Below are positions 3,554 through 41,758 of a stretch of DNA of 64,000 nt, in pieces. Source of the DNA: Candidatus Velesiimonas alkalicola (lineage in GTDB: Bacteria > Omnitrophota > Gorgyraeia > Velesiimonadales > Velesiimonadaceae); the NCBI GenBank assembly GCA_013626165.1, contig NDHX01000001.1, positions 36,817 through 100,816 of the forward strand, read 5' to 3'. The notes under the pieces are model-generated. The model had not been told where the DNA came from. It did not search any database and saw only the letters and a list, made by a program, of their open reading frames with translations. Each line of letters starts with the position of its first letter. Position 1 is the first letter of the stretch. The translations under genes were made by a program, and so were the position numbers.

Positions 3554-4024
3554 ATGAATAAAATTTATAACAAACAAAACAATGCCCTTCTTATAAGCAT
3601 GGGTGTCTCATTTTTTGTAGACAGGATAACAAAATATATAGTTTTAAAAACTCTTGGGGAAAAAGTTTTTTATTTTGGTTTTATAGAGTTGATGATTGTA
3701 AAAAATACCGGGGCCGCATTTGGAATTCTTGAAGAAAATACCATTGCTCTTGGTGTTCTTGGAATACTTGTATTGGTTTTTTTCTTTTACCTTGTTTGTG
3801 TGGGAAGTTTTAAAAATCTTTTCTCAAAAATTTCCACAGGCGTACTGTTGGGTGGCATTATGGGAAATACCTGGGACAGAATATTTTTTAGGTTTGTTAT
3901 AGATTTTATGCACTTTCCATTTTTTCCTTTGTCCGTGTTTCAGGTATTTAATATTGCCGATATCTGTATTACCTTCGGCGCCGTGGGTCTTGTAATAGAT
4001 AGTTTAAGAGGAAAAAAGTTATGA
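3554..4024 (+). CDS. lspA: Lipoprotein signal peptidase (signal peptidase II)
   Basis: Four predicted transmembrane segments plus the conserved NTGAAFG and FNIADxxI motifs. Confidence 0.85.
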   Translation: MNKIYNKQNNALLISMGVSFFVDRITKYIVLKTLGEKVFYFGFIELMIVKNTGAAFGILEENTIALGVLGILVLVFFFYLVCVGSFKNLFSKISTGVLLGGIMGNTWDRIFFRFVIDFMHFPFFPLSVFQVFNIADICITFGAVGLVIDSLRGKKL

Positions 4025-4752
4025 GACAGATACTTTTTCATATAGGACCTTTTGCAGTATATAGTTATGGTCTTTTTTTGGCTATAGGTATCTTCCTCGC
4101 TATGGCTGTCATAAAAAAATTCTCAAGAGTAAGTCCCTCAATAGTAAATTCCCTTTCAATATGGACTGTAATAGGAGGAATAATTGGAGCAAGACTTTTT
4201 TATGTGTTTCTTAATATTGCATATTATATTCAAAGTCCGCTTGAAGTTTTTGCAATACATAAAGGAGGGCTTGTCCTTTACGGAGGTATTGCGGGTGGCC
4301 TTATCTTGGGTTTTATATTTTGTAAAATAAGAAAATTAAACTTCTGGCAAATTTTAGATGATGTTGCAATGGGTCTTCCTCTTGGCATGGCATCTGGAAG
4401 ACTCGGCTGTTTTTTAAATGGGTGTTGTTATGGGAAAGAAACACAGGTTCTCTGGGCGGTAAAATATCCGGACATCCTGTATAAAGTACACCCTGTTCAG
4501 ATTTATGAGGCGTTGCTTCTTGTCTTTCTTTTCTTTGTTATTTATGGATTTAGAAAAGCATTTAAGGCAAAAATCAGAGGAGATGTATTTCTTTTATGTA
4601 TTATTTTTTATGCAATCATAAGATTTTTTATGGAATTTTTAAGAGGCGACCACCCTGAAGGAGTTTCAGGTCTGTTCCAGATTATAAGTATTTTTATCAT
4701 AGTATCATTTACAGGTATAATGCTCTACAGGCATGGAACACAACGAGGATAA
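4021..4752 (+). CDS. lgt: Prolipoprotein diacylglyceryl transferase
   Basis: Polytopic membrane protein with the Lgt signature GRLGCFLNGCCYGK. Its start overlaps the lspA stop by 4 nt. Confidence 0.9.
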   Translation: MRQILFHIGPFAVYSYGLFLAIGIFLAMAVIKKFSRVSPSIVNSLSIWTVIGGIIGARLFYVFLNIAYYIQSPLEVFAIHKGGLVLYGGIAGGLILGFIFCKIRKLNFWQILDDVAMGLPLGMASGRLGCFLNGCCYGKETQVLWAVKYPDILYKVHPVQIYEALLLVFLFFVIYGFRKAFKAKIRGDVFLLCIIFYAIIRFFMEFLRGDHPEGVSGLFQIISIFIIVSFTGIMLYRHGTQRG

Positions 4753-5653
4753 AAAACATTTGTTTTTTGTAAAAATTGGTATAAAAGAAGACAGAATCAG
4801 GCTGGATAGATTTATTTGCTTGATGCTTCCTGACGTTTCTCGTTCCTGTGTTCAGAGGTGGATAAAAGACGGTTTAGTGCTTGTTAATGAAAAGAAAGAA
4901 CCCTGCAACTACAGGGTAAAAGAAAACGATAAGGTAGAGGTATCTCCTCAAAAAACAAAAGTAACGGAATTTGTCAAATCCCAGGATATCCCCCTAGACA
5001 TTGTTTATGAAGATGAGCATCTCCTTGTAGTCAACAAACCAGCAGGTATGGTTATACATCCTGCACCCGGGCATTATGAGGGGACACTTGTCCATGCACT
5101 TCTCGGCAGGGTAAAAAAACTCTCAAAACTCGGGGGGGAGTTTAGGCCCGGTATTGTACACAGACTTGATAAAGATACATCAGGACTTATAATTGTTGCA
5201 AAGGATGAAAATGTACATTATAAGATTTCTGAACAATTTAAAAAAAGAGAGGTTTTTAAGTCTTATGTTGCAATTGTAAGCGGAAGGGTTAAACAGCAAC
5301 AGGGAACCATTGCCGCATCACTTGCAAGACATCCAAAAGATAGAAAAAAGTTTTGCATTCAGCATGATAAAGGAAGAGATGCAATAACAAACTACAAGGT
5401 TATAGAAAGAAAAAAGGATGCCACACTTCTTGATGTTTTTCCGATAACTGGAAGGACGCATCAGATAAGGATTCATCTTGCATATGCAAGACATCCAATA
5501 GTCGGCGATCCGGTATATGGAAAAAAACAAGGATTTGACAGACAGGCGCTACATGCCAGGATAATAGGTTTTCATCATCCGGTAACAAATAAATACTTAA
5601 AAATAGAATCACACCTGCCTGATGATATGAAAAAAATGTGGGAGTCTCTATAA
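4733..5653 (+). CDS. rluD: RluA-family 23S rRNA pseudouridine synthase (RluD-like) with N-terminal S4 domain
   Basis: Catalytic motif HRLDKDTSGLIIVAKD and an S4-like N-terminus. It overlaps the 3' end of lgt. Confidence 0.85.
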   Translation: MEHNEDKKHLFFVKIGIKEDRIRLDRFICLMLPDVSRSCVQRWIKDGLVLVNEKKEPCNYRVKENDKVEVSPQKTKVTEFVKSQDIPLDIVYEDEHLLVVNKPAGMVIHPAPGHYEGTLVHALLGRVKKLSKLGGEFRPGIVHRLDKDTSGLIIVAKDENVHYKISEQFKKREVFKSYVAIVSGRVKQQQGTIAASLARHPKDRKKFCIQHDKGRDAITNYKVIERKKDATLLDVFPITGRTHQIRIHLAYARHPIVGDPVYGKKQGFDRQALHARIIGFHHPVTNKYLKIESHLPDDMKKMWESL

Positions 5654-36855: not shown

Positions 36856-37212
36856 ATGGATAACTTAGGAAAAACAGGTGAAAAACATGCGGTCAACTTC
36901 TTAAAACAAAACGGATACAGGATACAACAATGCAACTGGAAGTGTCCGTTGGGCGAGATTGATATAATTGCATCTGACAGGGATATATTGTGTATCATAG
37001 AGGTTAAGACAAGACAAGACCAAGAGTTTGGAGGGCCCTGGGATGCAATAAATGATAGGAAAAAACACAAAATATCAAAACTTGCCCAGTGGTATTGTAG
37101 CCAAAAAGGTATAAAAAACAGATCTCTCAGATTTGATGTGGTTCTGTTATGGGCAGATTCCGATGGTAAGATAACAAATACTGAACTTTTAAGAGATGCA
37201 ATCAGGTTGTAG
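36856..37212 (+). CDS. yraN: YraN-family (UPF0102) endonuclease-fold protein
   Basis: GExxAxxFLxxxGYxI ... DIIAxxxxxLxIIEVKTR signature, and the conserved rnhB-yraN linkage. Confidence 0.85.
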   Translation: MDNLGKTGEKHAVNFLKQNGYRIQQCNWKCPLGEIDIIASDRDILCIIEVKTRQDQEFGGPWDAINDRKKHKISKLAQWYCSQKGIKNRSLRFDVVLLWADSDGKITNTELLRDAIRL

Positions 37213-37369
37213 TGTGGTGTTTTGCTTGTTCCACTTGTCCTGTTATTGTGAATGAAATGAAACAAACCCTGTTTTCATAATACTTAAAACTGCCACCCTG
37301 ATCTTAAGAGCATTCGGGACAAGTGAGTTTCTGTACTACAGGAATAAAATAATTAGAAAAGAAAAATAT

Positions 37370-37855
37370 ATGAAAAAACTCGTTGTCTATTATTCCTTTG
37401 AAGGCAATACAAAACTAATTGCTGAACATATTGCAAAGATGATAAATGCGGATATTCTTGAACTGAAACCAAAAATAGAAATTAAAACGAAAGGATTTAT
37501 GAAATATTTCTGGGGAGGAAAACAAGCTGTGTTGAAAACCAAACCAGAATTATTGCCTTTTGATAAAAGTGTTCAGGATTATGATGTATTATTTATAGGT
37601 ACTCCTGTATGGGCCTGGACATATACACCTCCGCTTAACACATTGTTTACTTCTTGTCATATATCAGATAAAAAAATAGCTCTGTTCTGTTGCCATGGTG
37701 GAAGTAGAGGAAAAATTTTTGATAAAATGAAAAAGGCATTGGGAAACAATCAAATTTTAGGAGAAATTGATTTTCAAGACCCATTAAAAAACAATACTGA
37801 TGCAAATATCCAAAGAGCAAAAAAATGGGCAGAAAATATAATAAAAAACTTATAA
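37370..37855 (+). CDS. Flavodoxin-like protein
   Basis: MKKLVVYYSFEGNTKLIAEHIA flavodoxin N-terminal FMN-binding loop, 161 aa. Confidence 0.75.
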   Translation: MKKLVVYYSFEGNTKLIAEHIAKMINADILELKPKIEIKTKGFMKYFWGGKQAVLKTKPELLPFDKSVQDYDVLFIGTPVWAWTYTPPLNTLFTSCHISDKKIALFCCHGGSRGKIFDKMKKALGNNQILGEIDFQDPLKNNTDANIQRAKKWAENIIKNL

Positions 37856-37937
37856 CGATTAACACAGTATGATGGTGACAAAACTTCACCTAACACGGCA
37901 TAAAGGGTTCGTGTTTAACGGTCTTTGTCTAAATTTT

Positions 37938-37996
37938 TGCTTCGCAAAAACTTCTTTTATGCTGGGAATGTTAGGCGAAATTTTGCGGTCATTTCT
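37938..37996. repeat. Left copy of an imperfect direct repeat flanking the R-M cassette
   Basis: TTGCTTCGCAAAAACTTCTTTTATGCTGGGAATGTTAGGCGAAATTTTGCGGTCATTTC. It aligns with 39704-39757 (TTGCTCCGCAACTTCGTTTGTGCTGGAAACGTTAAGCGAAACGGCGGTTTC). Weaker similarity extends ~50 nt further left. Confidence 0.75.
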
Positions 37997-38026
37997 ATAA
38001 GGTATTGTTTATAATACGATTACGAT

Positions 38027-38860
38027 ATGGACAAAAAAGAACTCGGGTCTAAAACTGCTAAAGGCGGTTTTGCCAATGAAAAAAGTATATGTAAGAAGTT
38101 TAATTCTTGGCAAAACGATAACGAAGCTCAGGAATGGCTTAAAATCATGGGCTACCATATTGATAAGCTGTCTTCAGTTAAAGCAATTCAAATTCCAACC
38201 AGAATAAAGAAAACCGATTTAGATAAATTTGAAATAGACGAGGAAGAATATGAAGCGTTAATGAAATTCAAAAAGGCTGATGCTCAAATAAGAATAATCA
38301 TAAAAATCGGTAATCTCCTGAAAATTGAAAATCTATCTCTAAAAAAGGCTAATTCCGATGCAGATTATAACCAAATTGATAAAAGAACCGTCGAGGCATA
38401 CCAAGAGATGTGGGGCTTTGATAATGAGATCGCTTTATGGCTAAAACTTTTCACGGGTGAATTAAATCCAAAATCATATTCAAAACTGGTAGGTAAAACC
38501 TCATTGAGAGACAAAAGGAGATTATTTATTAATGAAATGCCTGAAAGGATACAGGATAAAATTATCACCTTCTTCAAAAAGAATCGCATTATTGTAGTAA
38601 GCGACATATTAAAAGGGAGAGGCGGTCTATCTGCTAATTGGATGCTGGTAACCCGTTATAATAGAAGTGAGGATACAACTATATGGGCACTAAAAGATAT
38701 CAACACCGCAATGAATTTATTCGGCGGCGGTGATATTAAAATTTCACCCAAAGGTAGCCTTTACATTGGTAGAATCACAGCACAAAGAAAGGGTGGAACT
38801 CCTGACCCTACGAAGTTACAGTTCAAGATAAAACCTTGTGAATTATTTGAATTAGGGTAA
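38027..38860 (+). CDS. Candidate Type II restriction endonuclease (cognate of the downstream methyltransferase); no confidently recognised family
   Basis: 277 aa with no recognisable housekeeping domain, sitting 2 nt upstream of a DNA amino-methyltransferase. The C-terminal segment KGGTPDPTKLQFK is reminiscent of the C-termini of MspI/HinP1I-type enzymes (weak, from memory). Confidence 0.5.
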   Translation: MDKKELGSKTAKGGFANEKSICKKFNSWQNDNEAQEWLKIMGYHIDKLSSVKAIQIPTRIKKTDLDKFEIDEEEYEALMKFKKADAQIRIIIKIGNLLKIENLSLKKANSDADYNQIDKRTVEAYQEMWGFDNEIALWLKLFTGELNPKSYSKLVGKTSLRDKRRLFINEMPERIQDKIITFFKKNRIIVVSDILKGRGGLSANWMLVTRYNRSEDTTIWALKDINTAMNLFGGGDIKISPKGSLYIGRITAQRKGGTPDPTKLQFKIKPCELFELG

Positions 38861-38862
38861 AT

Positions 38863-39702
38863 ATGGAAGTCAATAAGGTTTATTTAGGTGATTGCATCAA
38901 AACAATGAGGGATTTCCCTCAAAATTCTGTAGATTTAGTATTTGCAGACCCACCATTTAATATTGGGATTAAGTACGATAAATACAATGATAACCTTTCT
39001 TATGTTGAATATTATAAATGGTCTGAAGACTGGATTAAAGAAACCTCCAGAGTTCTAAAGAAAGATGGCTCAATTTATATCGCAATAGGGGATGAATTTG
39101 CAGCAGAAATAAACATTATTCTAAAACGCACAGGATTTTATTTCAGGAATTGGATTATCTGGTATTACACCTTTGGACAAAACCAAAGAAAAAAGTTTAA
39201 TAGAGCACACGCCCATATTCTTTATTTCACAAAAGATAAAGAAAAGTTCAAATTTAATGGAGATACCATCAGAATACCATCTGCACGCCAATTAGTTTAC
39301 AATGACAGAAGGGCAAATCCACAAGGAAAAATTCCTGATGATGTCTGGGAATTCTCAAGGGTTTGTGGCACATTTAAAGAACGGCTGGGAGAACATCCTT
39401 GCCAAATGCCAGAAGCCTTATTAGAGAGAATAATTAAAGCAAGTTCAAGTTCTAATGATATTGTCTTAGACCCATTTGGTGGAACAGGCACAACCGCAGC
39501 AGTAGCAAAAAGATTGAAAAGACAATATATAACAATAGAAGCCTCTGAAAACTATTATGATGTAATAGTCAAAAGACTAAATGGACAAATTGAAGAAATA
39601 AAAAGAAATGTGAAACCAGACTTACAAAGACAAAGCACATTATTTAATTTTGATTATGACCGCAAAACTTCCGCTAACACAGCACAAACGACAAAGAAAT
39701 AA
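38863..39702 (+). CDS. Beta-class DNA amino-methyltransferase (N6-adenine or N4-cytosine; CcrM/HinfI-like architecture)
   Basis: Motif IV DPPFN precedes motif I (VLDPFGGTGTT), which is the beta-class order. Overall co-linearity with CcrM-like enzymes. Confidence 0.85.
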   Translation: MEVNKVYLGDCIKTMRDFPQNSVDLVFADPPFNIGIKYDKYNDNLSYVEYYKWSEDWIKETSRVLKKDGSIYIAIGDEFAAEINIILKRTGFYFRNWIIWYYTFGQNQRKKFNRAHAHILYFTKDKEKFKFNGDTIRIPSARQLVYNDRRANPQGKIPDDVWEFSRVCGTFKERLGEHPCQMPEALLERIIKASSSSNDIVLDPFGGTGTTAAVAKRLKRQYITIEASENYYDVIVKRLNGQIEEIKRNVKPDLQRQSTLFNFDYDRKTSANTAQTTKK

Positions 39703-39703
39703 A

Positions 39704-39757
39704 TTGCTCCGCAACTTCGTTTGTGCTGGAAACGTTAAGCGAAACGGCGGTTTCAAA
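39704..39757. repeat. Right copy of the imperfect direct repeat flanking the R-M cassette
   Basis: See 37938-37996. It begins 2 nt after the methyltransferase stop and abuts the truncated transposase remnant. Confidence 0.75.
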
Positions 39758-39941
39758 ATGAATTGTGAATAGTGCTGGGATTCTGTCCGAACATATCTGC
39801 TACTTGGTAACAGTTAAACCCTTGGCTAACCAGAAGAATTCCATGCAGCCGGTGGTCATATCGGGACTTATCCGAACGGTGTATCTCTTGCTGAACTGCA
39901 ATTTTCATAACTGGTGCATCGGCAATTTCCAGTCTTTTCAT
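39753..39941 (-). pseudogene. IS630-family transposase, N-terminal HTH fragment only (truncated)
   Basis: MKRLEIADAPVMKIAVQQEIHRSDKSRYDHRLHGILLVSQG... matches the conserved N-terminus of IS630/Tc1-like transposases. The ORF stops after 62 aa at the repeat boundary. Confidence 0.6.
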
Positions 39942-40371
39942 ACGCCTCCTTCTTTAAGGAGGCATTTTATCACAGTTCGGTTTATAACGCAAAATTTATG
40001 ATGCTATGTATAGTATGCCTTTGCTTGGTCAAAAAGAAGTTTTGAATCTGAAATTAAGTTGTATCCCTTTGCCTCAATTAAAAATCTTTGCCTTAAACTC
40101 AGGAATGGCTGGAGTTGGTTCAGTAACAGAGATTATCAAAAAACTTTTGGAAAATGAAGTAGACGAAAAGACAGTTAATGAATTTATCAAACAAAGATAT
40201 GAAGAGAAAATCCGAGAACGAAAAGCGGTTATTTCTGATGAAGATTTGAAAAAAGAATTGTTAAAATGAAACAAAAAAAGAGATTAAGGAAAAGAAGAAG
40301 ATAAAGATAGAAAAGACAGAAGAATATGCGACCTTAATTATCCACTCCTTAGAGACTGATAATTTAAGAAA

Positions 40372-40723
40372 GTGCAATATAAACCTTAAAAATAATGGAT
40401 TAATCACCAATCTACTTGATGGTTGTTGTGTGGAGGTTCCTGGCCTGGTAAGTAGGGAAGGGATAAGGCCTATCTATATTGGAGATCTACATTTGGGTCC
40501 GGCATCCTACTGTAGCAGAATAGTCTTTGCCCAGGCTTTAACCGTAGAAGCTCACTTTTCAAAAAATAAGGACCTGGTCTATCAGGCGCTTTTAGCCGAC
40601 CCTTTAACCAGTAGCACCTTAAAGATCAATAAGATAGTAGATATGGCAGATGAGTTTTTTAAAAAAGAAGAGAAATATTTTTCACAATTTAAAAAAGAAG
40701 ATGATATAATAACAGTCAAATAA
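40372..40723 (+). pseudogene. Glycoside hydrolase family 4 C-terminal fragment
   Basis: ...NGLITNLLDGCCVEVPGLVSREGIRP...KDLVYQALLADPLTSS... resembles the C-terminal region of GH4 enzymes. There is no N-terminal NAD-binding domain upstream. Confidence 0.5.
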
Positions 40724-40959
40724 TGTTGGTGAAAACACTGGATCAGGGATAAGATAACCATGGTCTGGGGAGTAGCTCGGTTATATTATAGGTTGTATTT
40801 TTTTCTGGGGCTTAATTGACCCTGTGAAGAAGATCAATCAAGCCTATAACCGAATAGTCACCATAGGATTTGGCCCAGAATAGGAGGATGGTGTTTACCG
40901 ACAAATAGCACTGCTTCAGAAAACTACAACCAAAGAAAAGAGTGTAGCGATGAAGAAAT

Positions 40960-41445
40960 AAATAGGAGTAGATGGACACAAGACAAGGGTGTAGAAGCAT
41001 TCAAGAAGACACTGAATAAGAGCAATGAGGCAGCGGTAGAATCAACAGGCAACACTTATGTATTTGCCAGAAAGATAAAGGGCAAAGTTAAGGCAGTCAG
41101 GATAATCAATCCTACGCAATTTAAGATTATCTCTGCTTTAAGTGAAGAAAACAGATGAGCACGATACGGTAACAATAAGCAAGGTATTTTAAGCAAAGGG
41201 TTAATCCTAAGAGATAAGGATGCTCAACAAAAGAAGAATTGCAGATAGCCAGTCTCATATGCACACGGGATAAATTTGTAAAGCTAAGAAATTGTTTAAA
41301 AAATAAAATCTACAATATCTTTAATGCTAATGATATAATTATCAAGCGTGAAGTTTTTGGTTCCAAGAAAAAATTAGATAAAGTTTTGGCCCTTGATATT
41401 AAATTAAGCTATCAATTTGAGCAGAAGATAATTGTTAAGTAGATA
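40960..41445 (+). mobile_element. Degraded IS110-family transposase (multiple frameshifted fragments)
   Basis: The fragments IGVDGHKTRV*, ...AAVESTGNTYVFARKIKGKVKAVRIINPTQFKIISALSEENR* and ...TRDKFVKLRNCLKNKIYNIF... match the IS110 N-terminal and middle motifs (VGIDxxK, EATGxY...NP...K.FA, R.L...R..L...NRI) in three frames. Confidence 0.6.
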
Positions 41446-41758
41446 CACAGCCTTAACAATTCAATTGACAAGATAAACGAAGAACTTAACAAAGAAGTGT
41501 AAGAAATTACAGCATTAGTGCAATCAATGTTCATTGCGATAAGGTATAATCTGTATTTAAAAAAATTTTATTTCAGACCTAAAGCCAAAAAAGGGCAGTG
41601 GCAAGGCAATTTATAGATACCACTAGAAAGTTTTTAACTATAATTTACCGTATCTTAAAGAATAAATGAGTGTTTGAAGATTTTAATAAATTCAAACTAG
41701 CGATAAATATTTAATAATACGGTTTTTAAAGTAGAAAATTATTGACTGTTAACATAGG

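Follow-up and report, generated by a model that had tools for sequence, protein, structure and literature searches.

The attC sites of integron gene cassettes are built from R and L boxes with conserved AAC and GTT triplets, an unpaired spacer and a variable terminal structure of 20-100 nt, and they become chimeric after integration (PMC4889954). The functions most often met in cassettes are restriction-modification (R-M) and toxin-antitoxin, integrons have been credited with gene transfer across domains, and in metagenome-assembled genomes (MAGs) clusters without an integrase form the majority (PMC9668308). Such clusters of attC sites lacking integrases (CALIN) are common, often lie beside insertion sequence (IS) elements and often hold only two sites (PMC4889954; 10.1101/2022.09.11.507474). 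Here, we describe a locus from Candidatus Velesiimonas alkalicola (Omnitrophota) in which an R-M gene pair lies between two imperfect direct repeats. The DNA analysed, referred to as the window, is a stretch of 64,000 nucleotides (contig NDHX01000001.1, positions 36,817 to 100,816). The combined evidence makes it probable that the gene pair is a gene cassette of the integron type, lying in a cluster of two sites that lacks an integrase, and that its sites form a non-canonical, attC-like family.

Other described systems share parts of this arrangement. In Helicobacter, where Nobusato in 2000 and Furuta in 2010 are said to have proposed that R-M units insert with a long target duplication, type II gene pairs likewise lie between direct repeats of tens of bases and are patchily distributed. 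There, however, the repeat is a duplicated local target, whereas in the window it is a structured, conserved site carried along by the R-M genes from phylum to phylum. The pdif modules of Acinetobacter plasmids depend on Xer recombination at 28-bp duplex sites, which consist of two 11-bp arms around a 6-bp spacer. They resemble the present locus as transposase-less modules, including toxin-antitoxin modules, with short inverted recombination sites and a presumed host tyrosine recombinase, but the sites in the window are hairpins of 65-94 nt with the borders at one hairpin end. Lastly, the IS1111-attC group of the IS110 family targets cassette sites and is found in cassette arrays. An IS110-family gene just 3' of the R-M site in one of the contexts discussed below (L011) recalls this group; there is no such IS in the window.

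The two genes and the two sites at the centre of this study are as follows (R1 is a covariance model of the site family with 81 positions).

38027-38860, + strand: type II restriction endonuclease of the R.HinP1I family, 277 aa (PF11463, E 2.3e-54)
38863-39702, + strand: N4/N6 DNA methyltransferase, 279 aa (PF01555 N6_N4_Mtase, E 3e-65)
37874-37992, + strand: left site, attC-like (R1 match at 37887-37977, 74.3 bits on + versus 13.5 on -; fold z -3.6/-4.0)
39656-39740, + strand: right site, attC-like, belonging to the R-M cassette (R1 match at 39671-39741, 74.1 bits on + versus 16.8 on -)

The genes for the endonuclease and the methyltransferase are 2 nt apart on one strand, the arrangement of a type II R-M system. 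A sequence-only reading of the locus had placed them between imperfect direct repeats, and this was borne out: the repeat consensus is present at 37938-37995 and 39705-39755 with a Smith-Waterman score of 43. The similarity withstood the shuffled control that had been named as able to refute it, since 1000 dinucleotide shuffles scored 17.1±2.7 (maximum 32; z = 9.7), and random real windows of 121 nt reached a local alignment score of at most 27. The weaker similarity said to extend into the last methyltransferase codons was recovered as well (37879-37904 versus 39663-39688, 85%), and the full copies span 37874-37992 on the left and 39656-39754 on the right. Each copy is an imperfect palindrome; both copies and their reverse complements align in all four arm orientations, and both copies fold better than shuffled sequences on either strand (z -3.1 to -4.0). 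As each copy is itself palindromic, the gene pair is also flanked by an inverted repeat, of 24 nt (37969-37992 and 39656-39679, 88% complementary). The overall identity of the left and right copies is 49%, and the longest exact run between the two regions reported by blastn is 12 nt, on opposite strands. The left site is nearer to the sites behind distant R-M homologues (L037_R, 73%; L031_R, 69%) than to the right site, which argues against a duplication made at insertion. The two repeats are diverged members of a structured, strand-specific family of palindromic sites, and neither passive flanks nor a duplicated target. An Rfam search of the region gave no match at gathering or E-value thresholds.

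A common plan of these sites was drawn up from 14 well-aligned family members. Read along the gene strand, the 5' half consists of an outer arm, a ..TAAC box, one unpaired A and a 12-nt stem arm. This is followed by a loop of 25-50 nt with a conserved AAAT, a small GC(T)TCGC hairpin and then (C)ACTTC, while the 3' half holds the complementary stem arm, a bulge of 4-5 nt (GRAAY), GTTA.. and the second outer arm. The length from R'' to R' is 65-94 nt in the 14 members (88 nt in the left and 68 nt in the right site of the window), and TAAC and GTTA are nearly invariant. In the window, the parts are placed as follows.

Left site, +, 5' half: outer arm 37874-37887; R'' ACCTAAC 37888-37894; unpaired A 37895; L'' CGGCATAAAGGG 37896-37907
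Left site, +, loop and inner arm: loop 37908-37950 with the mini-hairpin TTGCTTCGCAA; L' CTTCTTTTATGCTG 37951-37964
Left site, +, 3' end: one-sided bulge GGAAT 37965-37969; R' GTTAGGC 37970-37976; 3' outer arm 37971-37992, which is that of the R-M cassette
Right site, +, 5' half: outer arm 39656-39671; R'' CGCTAAC 39672-39678; unpaired A 39679; L'' CAGCACAAACGA 39680-39691
Right site, +, loop and inner arm: loop 39692-39716 with the mini-hairpin TTGCTCCGCAA; L' TCGTTTGTGCTG 39717-39728
Right site, +, 3' end: bulge GAAAC 39729-39733; R' GTTAAGC 39734-39740

The inner stem covaries, with changes on both sides in 7 of its 12 pairs and 87% of the cells paired. The whole structure is 79.5% paired compared with 35-42% when the partner strand is slid, and no shuffle reached the observed score, while the outer pairs beyond TAAC and GTTA are poorly paired in situ. 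Model R1 finds exactly two matches in the 64 kb, both on the + strand with the scores listed above, and the gap between the + and - strand scores indicates that the element is directional rather than a simple palindrome. There is no T-run behind either hairpin, nor was a terminator-like site called at these positions. The right site encroaches on the gene before it: its 5' arm encodes the last ~15 codons of the methyltransferase (from 39656), the stop codon TAA of which (39700-39702) sits in the loop. An exact look-up of the methyltransferase protein found none on record. Its homologues are shorter (261-266 aa in five more distant homologues and in L011, L021 and L034), and in L028, L031 and L037 the palindromic site lies wholly downstream of the methyltransferase gene. 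Two sites elsewhere have unlike inner-stem arms that pair poorly, namely L022 2301-2371 (CAGCACAAACGA with TTTCTTTTATGCTGG) and L028 1849-1926 (CAGCATATACG with CTTCTTTTACACCG). These mixed arms look as if two sites had recombined inside the loop.

The borders of the mobile unit could be read from other genomes. The arm motif GACCGCAAAAYTTCNNCTAACA, present at two places in the window and in no shuffled sequence, was used to scan genome and metagenome collections (596 Gb of genomes plus a metagenome collection). The scans returned contigs with the same R-M pair, along with chance coding matches; L001, L003, L005-L009 and L014 were discarded as unrelated coding sequence, mostly in the frame reading LAEILR. 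When L011, L012, L010, L013 and L002 were compared with the window (blastn, 84-88% nucleotide identity), the only part in common was that from 37963, 37970 or 37977 to 39732 or 39737, and the flanks were unrelated beyond the GTTA on each side. The 1.76-kb unit is thus present in at least five unrelated genomic contexts, the copy in L002 being a remnant in a Thermodesulfovibrionia MAG. The right site is conserved behind the R-M homologues in L010, L011, L012, L022 and L004. Since the shared unit ends within the repeats, it is the right site that moves together with the genes, the left one being part of the unit before them. The cassette owns only the last 22 nt of the left repeat (TTAGGCGAAATTTTGCGGTCAT) and almost all of the right repeat. 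The resulting elements are:

37971-39734, + strand: R-M gene cassette in its integrated linear form, 1764 bp, TTAGGCGAAATTTTGCGGTCAT... to ...GTGCTGGAAACG, delimited by the shared-region borders
37971-37992, + strand: cassette start, 22 nt, reverse complementary to the 5' flank of the 3' site of the same cassette (39656-39678), with which it would complete a long palindrome in the circle
39735-39754, + strand: TTAAGCGAAACGGCGGTTTC, start of whatever followed the R-M cassette, placed by alignment of the left and right copies; the similarity to other contexts stops at 39737

We infer that the crossover took place at G|TTA at both cassette ends. In the window, the cassette start matches its own site at 20 of 23 Watson-Crick positions, while the sequence actually 3' of the right site does so at 11 of 23. 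The same relation was found in each of five contexts (window, L011, L012, L022 and L037): the cassette start matches the complement of the own-site flank at 17-21 of 23-24 positions, and the sequence that actually follows the site at 5-11 positions only. Judged from the sequence, this is the circular-permutation signature of integron cassettes. TTAAGCGAAACGGCGGTTTC resembles the cassette start (GTTAGGCGAAATTTTGCGG) and is broken off after 20 nt by the next fragment. Both site-specific and homologous recombination at the repeats had been put forward in the sequence-only reading. The site-specific part of that proposal is supported, with borders inside the repeats and at least five contexts, whereas homologous recombination between the copies is unlikely because of their low identity and short exact runs.

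The same sites also vary within the community from which the assembly was obtained. In L016-L020 and L004 (assemblies BBPE/BBPF/BBPG, runs DRR093101-3), the cassette appears as separate contigs of 1.2-1.8 kb that end inside both sites. Among the source-community contigs, an identical endonuclease gene is joined to variant junctions (GTTAGCAG versus GTTAGGCG) and variant loops, and in the related assembly L015 the right site contains NN. The variant junctions and loops, taken with the contig breaks, indicate that in this community the sites are either polymorphic or found in two or more contexts.

Homologues of the endonuclease were found at identities of 74-100%, in many bacterial phyla and in archaea. 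Those at 74-89% amino acid identity occur in MAGs named Nitrospinae, Thermodesulfovibrionales, Armatimonadetes, Elusimicrobiota, Cloacimonadota, Bacteroidetes and Atribacteria, and in the archaeal Argoarchaeum and Altiarchaeales. The cassette and the sites were not found in viral contigs, plasmids or phages. In three distant R-M homologues (74-77% amino acid identity; L028/L030, L031 and L037-L042, one of them archaeal), the palindromic element lies just behind a methyltransferase of 261-264 aa, which makes the site an integral module of the R-M unit. In L021 (5001-6634), a close homologue of the R-M pair (86% identity for the endonuclease) has dsrEFH on one side and an HSP20 gene on the other and is devoid of outer arms and palindromic site, so genes and site are separable modules.

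The sequence-only reading had suggested looking for other cassettes flanked by the same repeat, and model R1 found series of same-strand sites directly 3' of other genes. L011 holds five sites on one strand; the genes that separate them include HicB/HicA, the R-M pair and a DUF433/PIN-like pair. In L037-L042 there are two to three same-strand sites, in the order second R-M, site, window-type R-M, site, a different long palindrome, NUDIX and a weak site (E 0.08). In L023 one site follows a TIR-STAND gene and another, on the other strand, a protease gene. Four of these sites lay outside the training set of R1. The different long palindrome (L037 5749-5908, also in L038-L041) is a second type of ~130 nt, GCCTAAC GGTGCGGCGGG ... 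CCCGCCGCACC GTTATAT, which directly follows the R-M site with no gene between; in L037 it was detected neither by R1 nor by the attC models described below. In L011, an IS110-family transposase gene (3843-4886, - strand; NF033542, E 5e-72) starts ~200 nt downstream of the R-M site.

The sites resemble attC sites in plan, position and behaviour. Both sites of the window carry AAC in R'' and GTT in R' within the ~57-141 nt length range of attC sites. Like attC, they are imperfect palindromes (65-94 nt in the family) 3' of one or more genes, with TAAC/GTTA ends, an outer stem, an inner stem and a variable loop, though spacer and inner stem are built differently (see below). Both are on the + strand in the same orientation, one after a flavodoxin gene and the other overlapping the methyltransferase end, in the manner of a cassette array. 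Their strand specificity is seen at the sequence level, in the scores of model R1. The border at G|TT of the distal box and the circular permutation follow from the cassette borders and from five of five contexts; same-strand arrays, a cargo of R-M, toxin-antitoxin and defence genes, and spread across domains are further traits shared with integron cassettes. The locus also resembles a CALIN, with two sites 1.76 kb apart (<4 kb) on one strand of a chromosome, no integrase nearby and an IS-like remnant alongside; small clusters of two make up the commonest class of CALIN. CALIN and single attC sites lacking an integrase (SALIN) are defined by the attC calls of IntegronFinder (Cury 2016, Loot 2023 preprint), and the sites of the window were not called by the attC models used here. 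By the definitions of IntegronFinder it would count as a CALIN of two sites, though these misfit the canonical attC profile.

That misfit was measured with two attC models made in this analysis, R2 from 13 class-1 attC sites and R3 from 19 sites (IntegronFinder's own model comprises 96 sites). The sites for R2 were taken from plasmid cassette arrays, after the IntI1 sequence had been confirmed at 100% identity, while R3 combines 10 class-1 sites with 9 archaeal attCs that were recombined by IntI1 experimentally (Data S9, PMC9668308). R3 recovers left-out class-1 sites (dfrA27, 24.5 bits, E 0.002; psp, 58 bits; aadA16, 62 bits). A home-made scan for AAC...GTT hairpins proved too noisy, ranking the left site among chance hairpins. 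Neither the motifs of the window sites nor the Argoarchaeum contig appear in the published attC lists in the supplements of Ghaly 2021 and 2022.

Several results weigh against an integron-type cassette. Neither R2 nor R3 detected the window sites or any other family site, the best scores being 9.4-10.6 bits (E 3.2-6.4) on the wrong strand. For the left site these were 10.4 bits with R2 (E 3.2) and 9.4 bits with R3 (E 6.4), both on the minus strand, and for the right site there was nothing. The models miss the family because spacer, inner stem and consensus differ in the alignments. A canonical attC reads TAAC-AAnTC-(8-9 nt L'')-GAC / L'-(6 nt)-GTTA with a bulged base in L'', and class-1 and archaeal attCs have a spacer of 5-6 nt on both sides. 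The window family, in contrast, lacks the TAAC-AAnTC-L''-GAC consensus, has 1 nt versus 5 nt in these positions, and thus a one-sided bulge of 4-5 nt, and has a 12-bp inner stem without a bulged base. It further departs from attC in an outer stem of ~17 bp beyond the R box and in the conserved AAAT/CACTTC, in the right half of the loop. No integrase was found in the 64-kb window: ten candidate open reading frames (ORFs) encode other proteins, the C-terminal motif of tyrosine recombinases is absent from all six frames, and tblastn with IntI1 returned nothing. Nor did the other R-M/site loci examined hold an intact integrase; the sole trace, hit by tblastn with IntI1, was a C-terminal fragment of 41 aa that precedes the array in L037/L038, with the integron-integrase model TIGR02249 as best match (E 1e-12). 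The flavodoxin look-up for an empty site gave only the same occupied locus, and no circular junction was seen, the short contigs L016-L020 breaking inside the sites. Finally, the two types of arm in the L022 site are not explained by a crossover confined to R'.

The integrase fragment merits little weight, as its relatives are widespread and all fragmentary, and the one whose context was examined lies beside an IS110 gene. The relatives of the L038 fragment (proteins P0121-P0240) are all C-terminal fragments of 43-77 aa, 70-97% identical, from many phyla including archaea. One of them, P0139 (L051-L060, e.g. L051 6380-8207), is separated by ~290 nt from an oppositely oriented transposase gene of the IS110 family, and no R1-type sites were found near it in L051-L060. 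This pattern suggests recurrent IS110 insertion into one integrase family. A resemblance of the bottom-strand R arm ATTTCGCCTAA to an XerC-binding arm was rejected by reasoning alone, as the second arm would be wrongly oriented.

Because the sites are attC-like in plan, position and behaviour but failed the profile test, we file them as a variant of attC and not as members. The cassette borders, the covarying hairpin and the arrays behind accessory genes are shown by the sequences, as are the circular permutation and the strand specificity, and all of these support an integron-type cassette. How such a cassette moves can be outlined conditionally. The R-M pair and the right-hand site would together form a gene cassette that carries its own promoter and that would be excised elsewhere as a circle holding one complete site. 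The junction of this circle would read ...GTGCTGGAAACG|TTAGGCGAAATTTTGCGGTCAT..., that is ...GGAAACG|TTAGGCGAAATTTTGCGG.... The circle would then insert next to a family member already in place, the left copy, with strands exchanged at the G|TTA of the distal arm, and the empty site would read ...TATGCTGGGAATG|TTAAGCGAAACGGCGG.... Once integrated, the cassette would have the 3' outer arm of its site at the front and the remainder of the site at the end. A permuted own site next to an upstream site would account for the presence of both direct and inverted repeats, and the opening of a long palindrome at GTTA in the circle would account for the poor pairing of the outer pairs in situ. The circular intermediate and the exact crossover position are inferred in this scheme, and the enzyme would be a tyrosine recombinase resembling integron integrases that acts in trans on the folded single strand.

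A more far-reaching possibility, which we regard as tentative, is that these sites, with their extended outer stem, one-sided bulge, long covarying inner stem and AAAT/CACTTC loop motifs, constitute a separate family of cassette sites missed by standard attC models and maybe served by a non-classical recombinase, a second system of cassette exchange parallel to integrons. On this view the family would have spread one near-identical R-M cassette, along with cassettes of toxin-antitoxin and defence genes, among at least nine named bacterial and archaeal lineages.

Explanations without site-specific cassette exchange were also considered. The hairpins could be expression elements, serving as a 3' stabiliser or terminator of the methyltransferase transcript or as an operator at the endonuclease promoter, that were carried along passively while illegitimate or homology-facilitated recombination tended to break the DNA at hairpins. 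Such a role would suit a site conserved directly behind the methyltransferase in three distant homologues and a left arm ~20 nt upstream of the conserved TATAAT before the endonuclease gene. Covariation attests to selection for pairing and is silent on its purpose, and the hybrid L022 site suggests crossovers inside the element. We nevertheless consider this explanation unlikely, given the lack of T-runs and terminator-like calls at the hairpins, the same site family behind unrelated genes in same-strand arrays, and the borders at the same GTTA in independent contexts with a cassette start complementary to its own 3' site. The recurrent GTTA borders and this complementarity make random breakage unfit as a cause. 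A sequence-specific alternative would be a passenger without a transposase of its own, which a Y1 HUH transposase of the IS200/IS605 kind would mobilise in trans, in single-stranded form, with cleavage after GTTA. These enzymes recognise a subterminal hairpin and cleave after a tetranucleotide, and the element indeed has GTTA before it and at its end with no longer duplication, a hairpin that ends 5 nt before the right-hand GTTA and a strong strand specificity. Its left end, however, has no hairpin of its own, since the 22 nt there pair only with the far end or the upstream site. No tnpA was found in the window or in any of the loci, and serial arrays of gene plus site are foreign to IS200/IS605 derivatives, all of which renders a HUH passenger very unlikely.

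Less credible still is a miniature inverted-repeat or repetitive extragenic palindrome (REP)-like element, possibly derived from the neighbouring IS, that has copies throughout the genome, two of which bracket the genes by chance or as a composite transposon. Each copy is an imperfect palindrome of ~100 nt beside a putative transposase fragment, as this would predict. Yet there are only two copies in 64 kb, the arm motif was found in public collections only beside this R-M unit apart from chance coding matches, neither TA nor any other target sequence is duplicated at the borders, the right copy also accompanies the R-M genes of other phyla in conserved form, and the neighbouring ORF is not demonstrable as IS630. 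A long target duplication upon R-M insertion, as proposed for Helicobacter, would neatly yield an R-M pair between direct repeats of 55-100 bp, but we give it almost no credence: copies with 49% identity, of which the left is nearer to sites of other organisms, do not look like a duplicated target, and the repeat accompanies the R-M genes in unrelated genomes instead of being locus-specific.

The R-M unit and its sites are flanked by the following features.

37370-37855, + strand: flavodoxin-like gene directly upstream of the left site (PF12682, E 7e-17)
39753-39941, - strand: helix-turn-helix ORF of 62 aa abutting the right site, possibly the N-terminus of a transposase, cut short (PF13384 HTH_23, E 1.5e-4, below its cutoff)

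The flavodoxin stop codon is 33 nt before R'' of the left site, and homologues of the protein at 64-70% identity occur in MAGs and genomes named from several phyla. The flavodoxin gene may be the cassette that owns the left site, the cross-phylum homologues being suggestive only. At its left border, in 37205-37372, neither a complement of the left site's 5' flank (score 13 versus a background of 12.7) nor a site matching R1 was found. On the other side, the right copy had been described as abutting a truncated IS630 transposase. The IS630 identity could not be confirmed, as the ORF has only the weak HTH_23 match, with no NCBIfam match and no tblastn match to plasmids. The region to the right of the cassette (39753-41750) is gene-poor and looks decayed. 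It contains an 87-aa ORF without a family (40006-40269) and, at 40430-40723, only the last ~90 residues of a family-4 glycosyl hydrolase/alpha-galactosidase without the N-terminal part. An inverted repeat of 111 nt (TCCGAAC...GTTCGGT, 39871-39981) covers the beginning of the helix-turn-helix ORF as well as a GC-rich hairpin, which together with the T's after it (39944-39963) was called terminator-like on the + strand.

R-M and defence genes are already known as cargo of integron cassettes, and the present locus would add a complete case in an uncultivated bacterium, with borders placed at single-base precision and the same cassette found in archaea as well as bacteria. Should the sites be no more than divergent attC sites, the locus would be an ordinary two-site cluster and a worked example of a defence pair landing beside housekeeping genes. 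If they are a distinct family missed by current tools, cassette arrays would be under-counted in candidate phyla and archaea, and the enzyme that moves them would be a concrete target. The 81-position model R1 may be used to seek the whole family together with a co-occurring recombinase.

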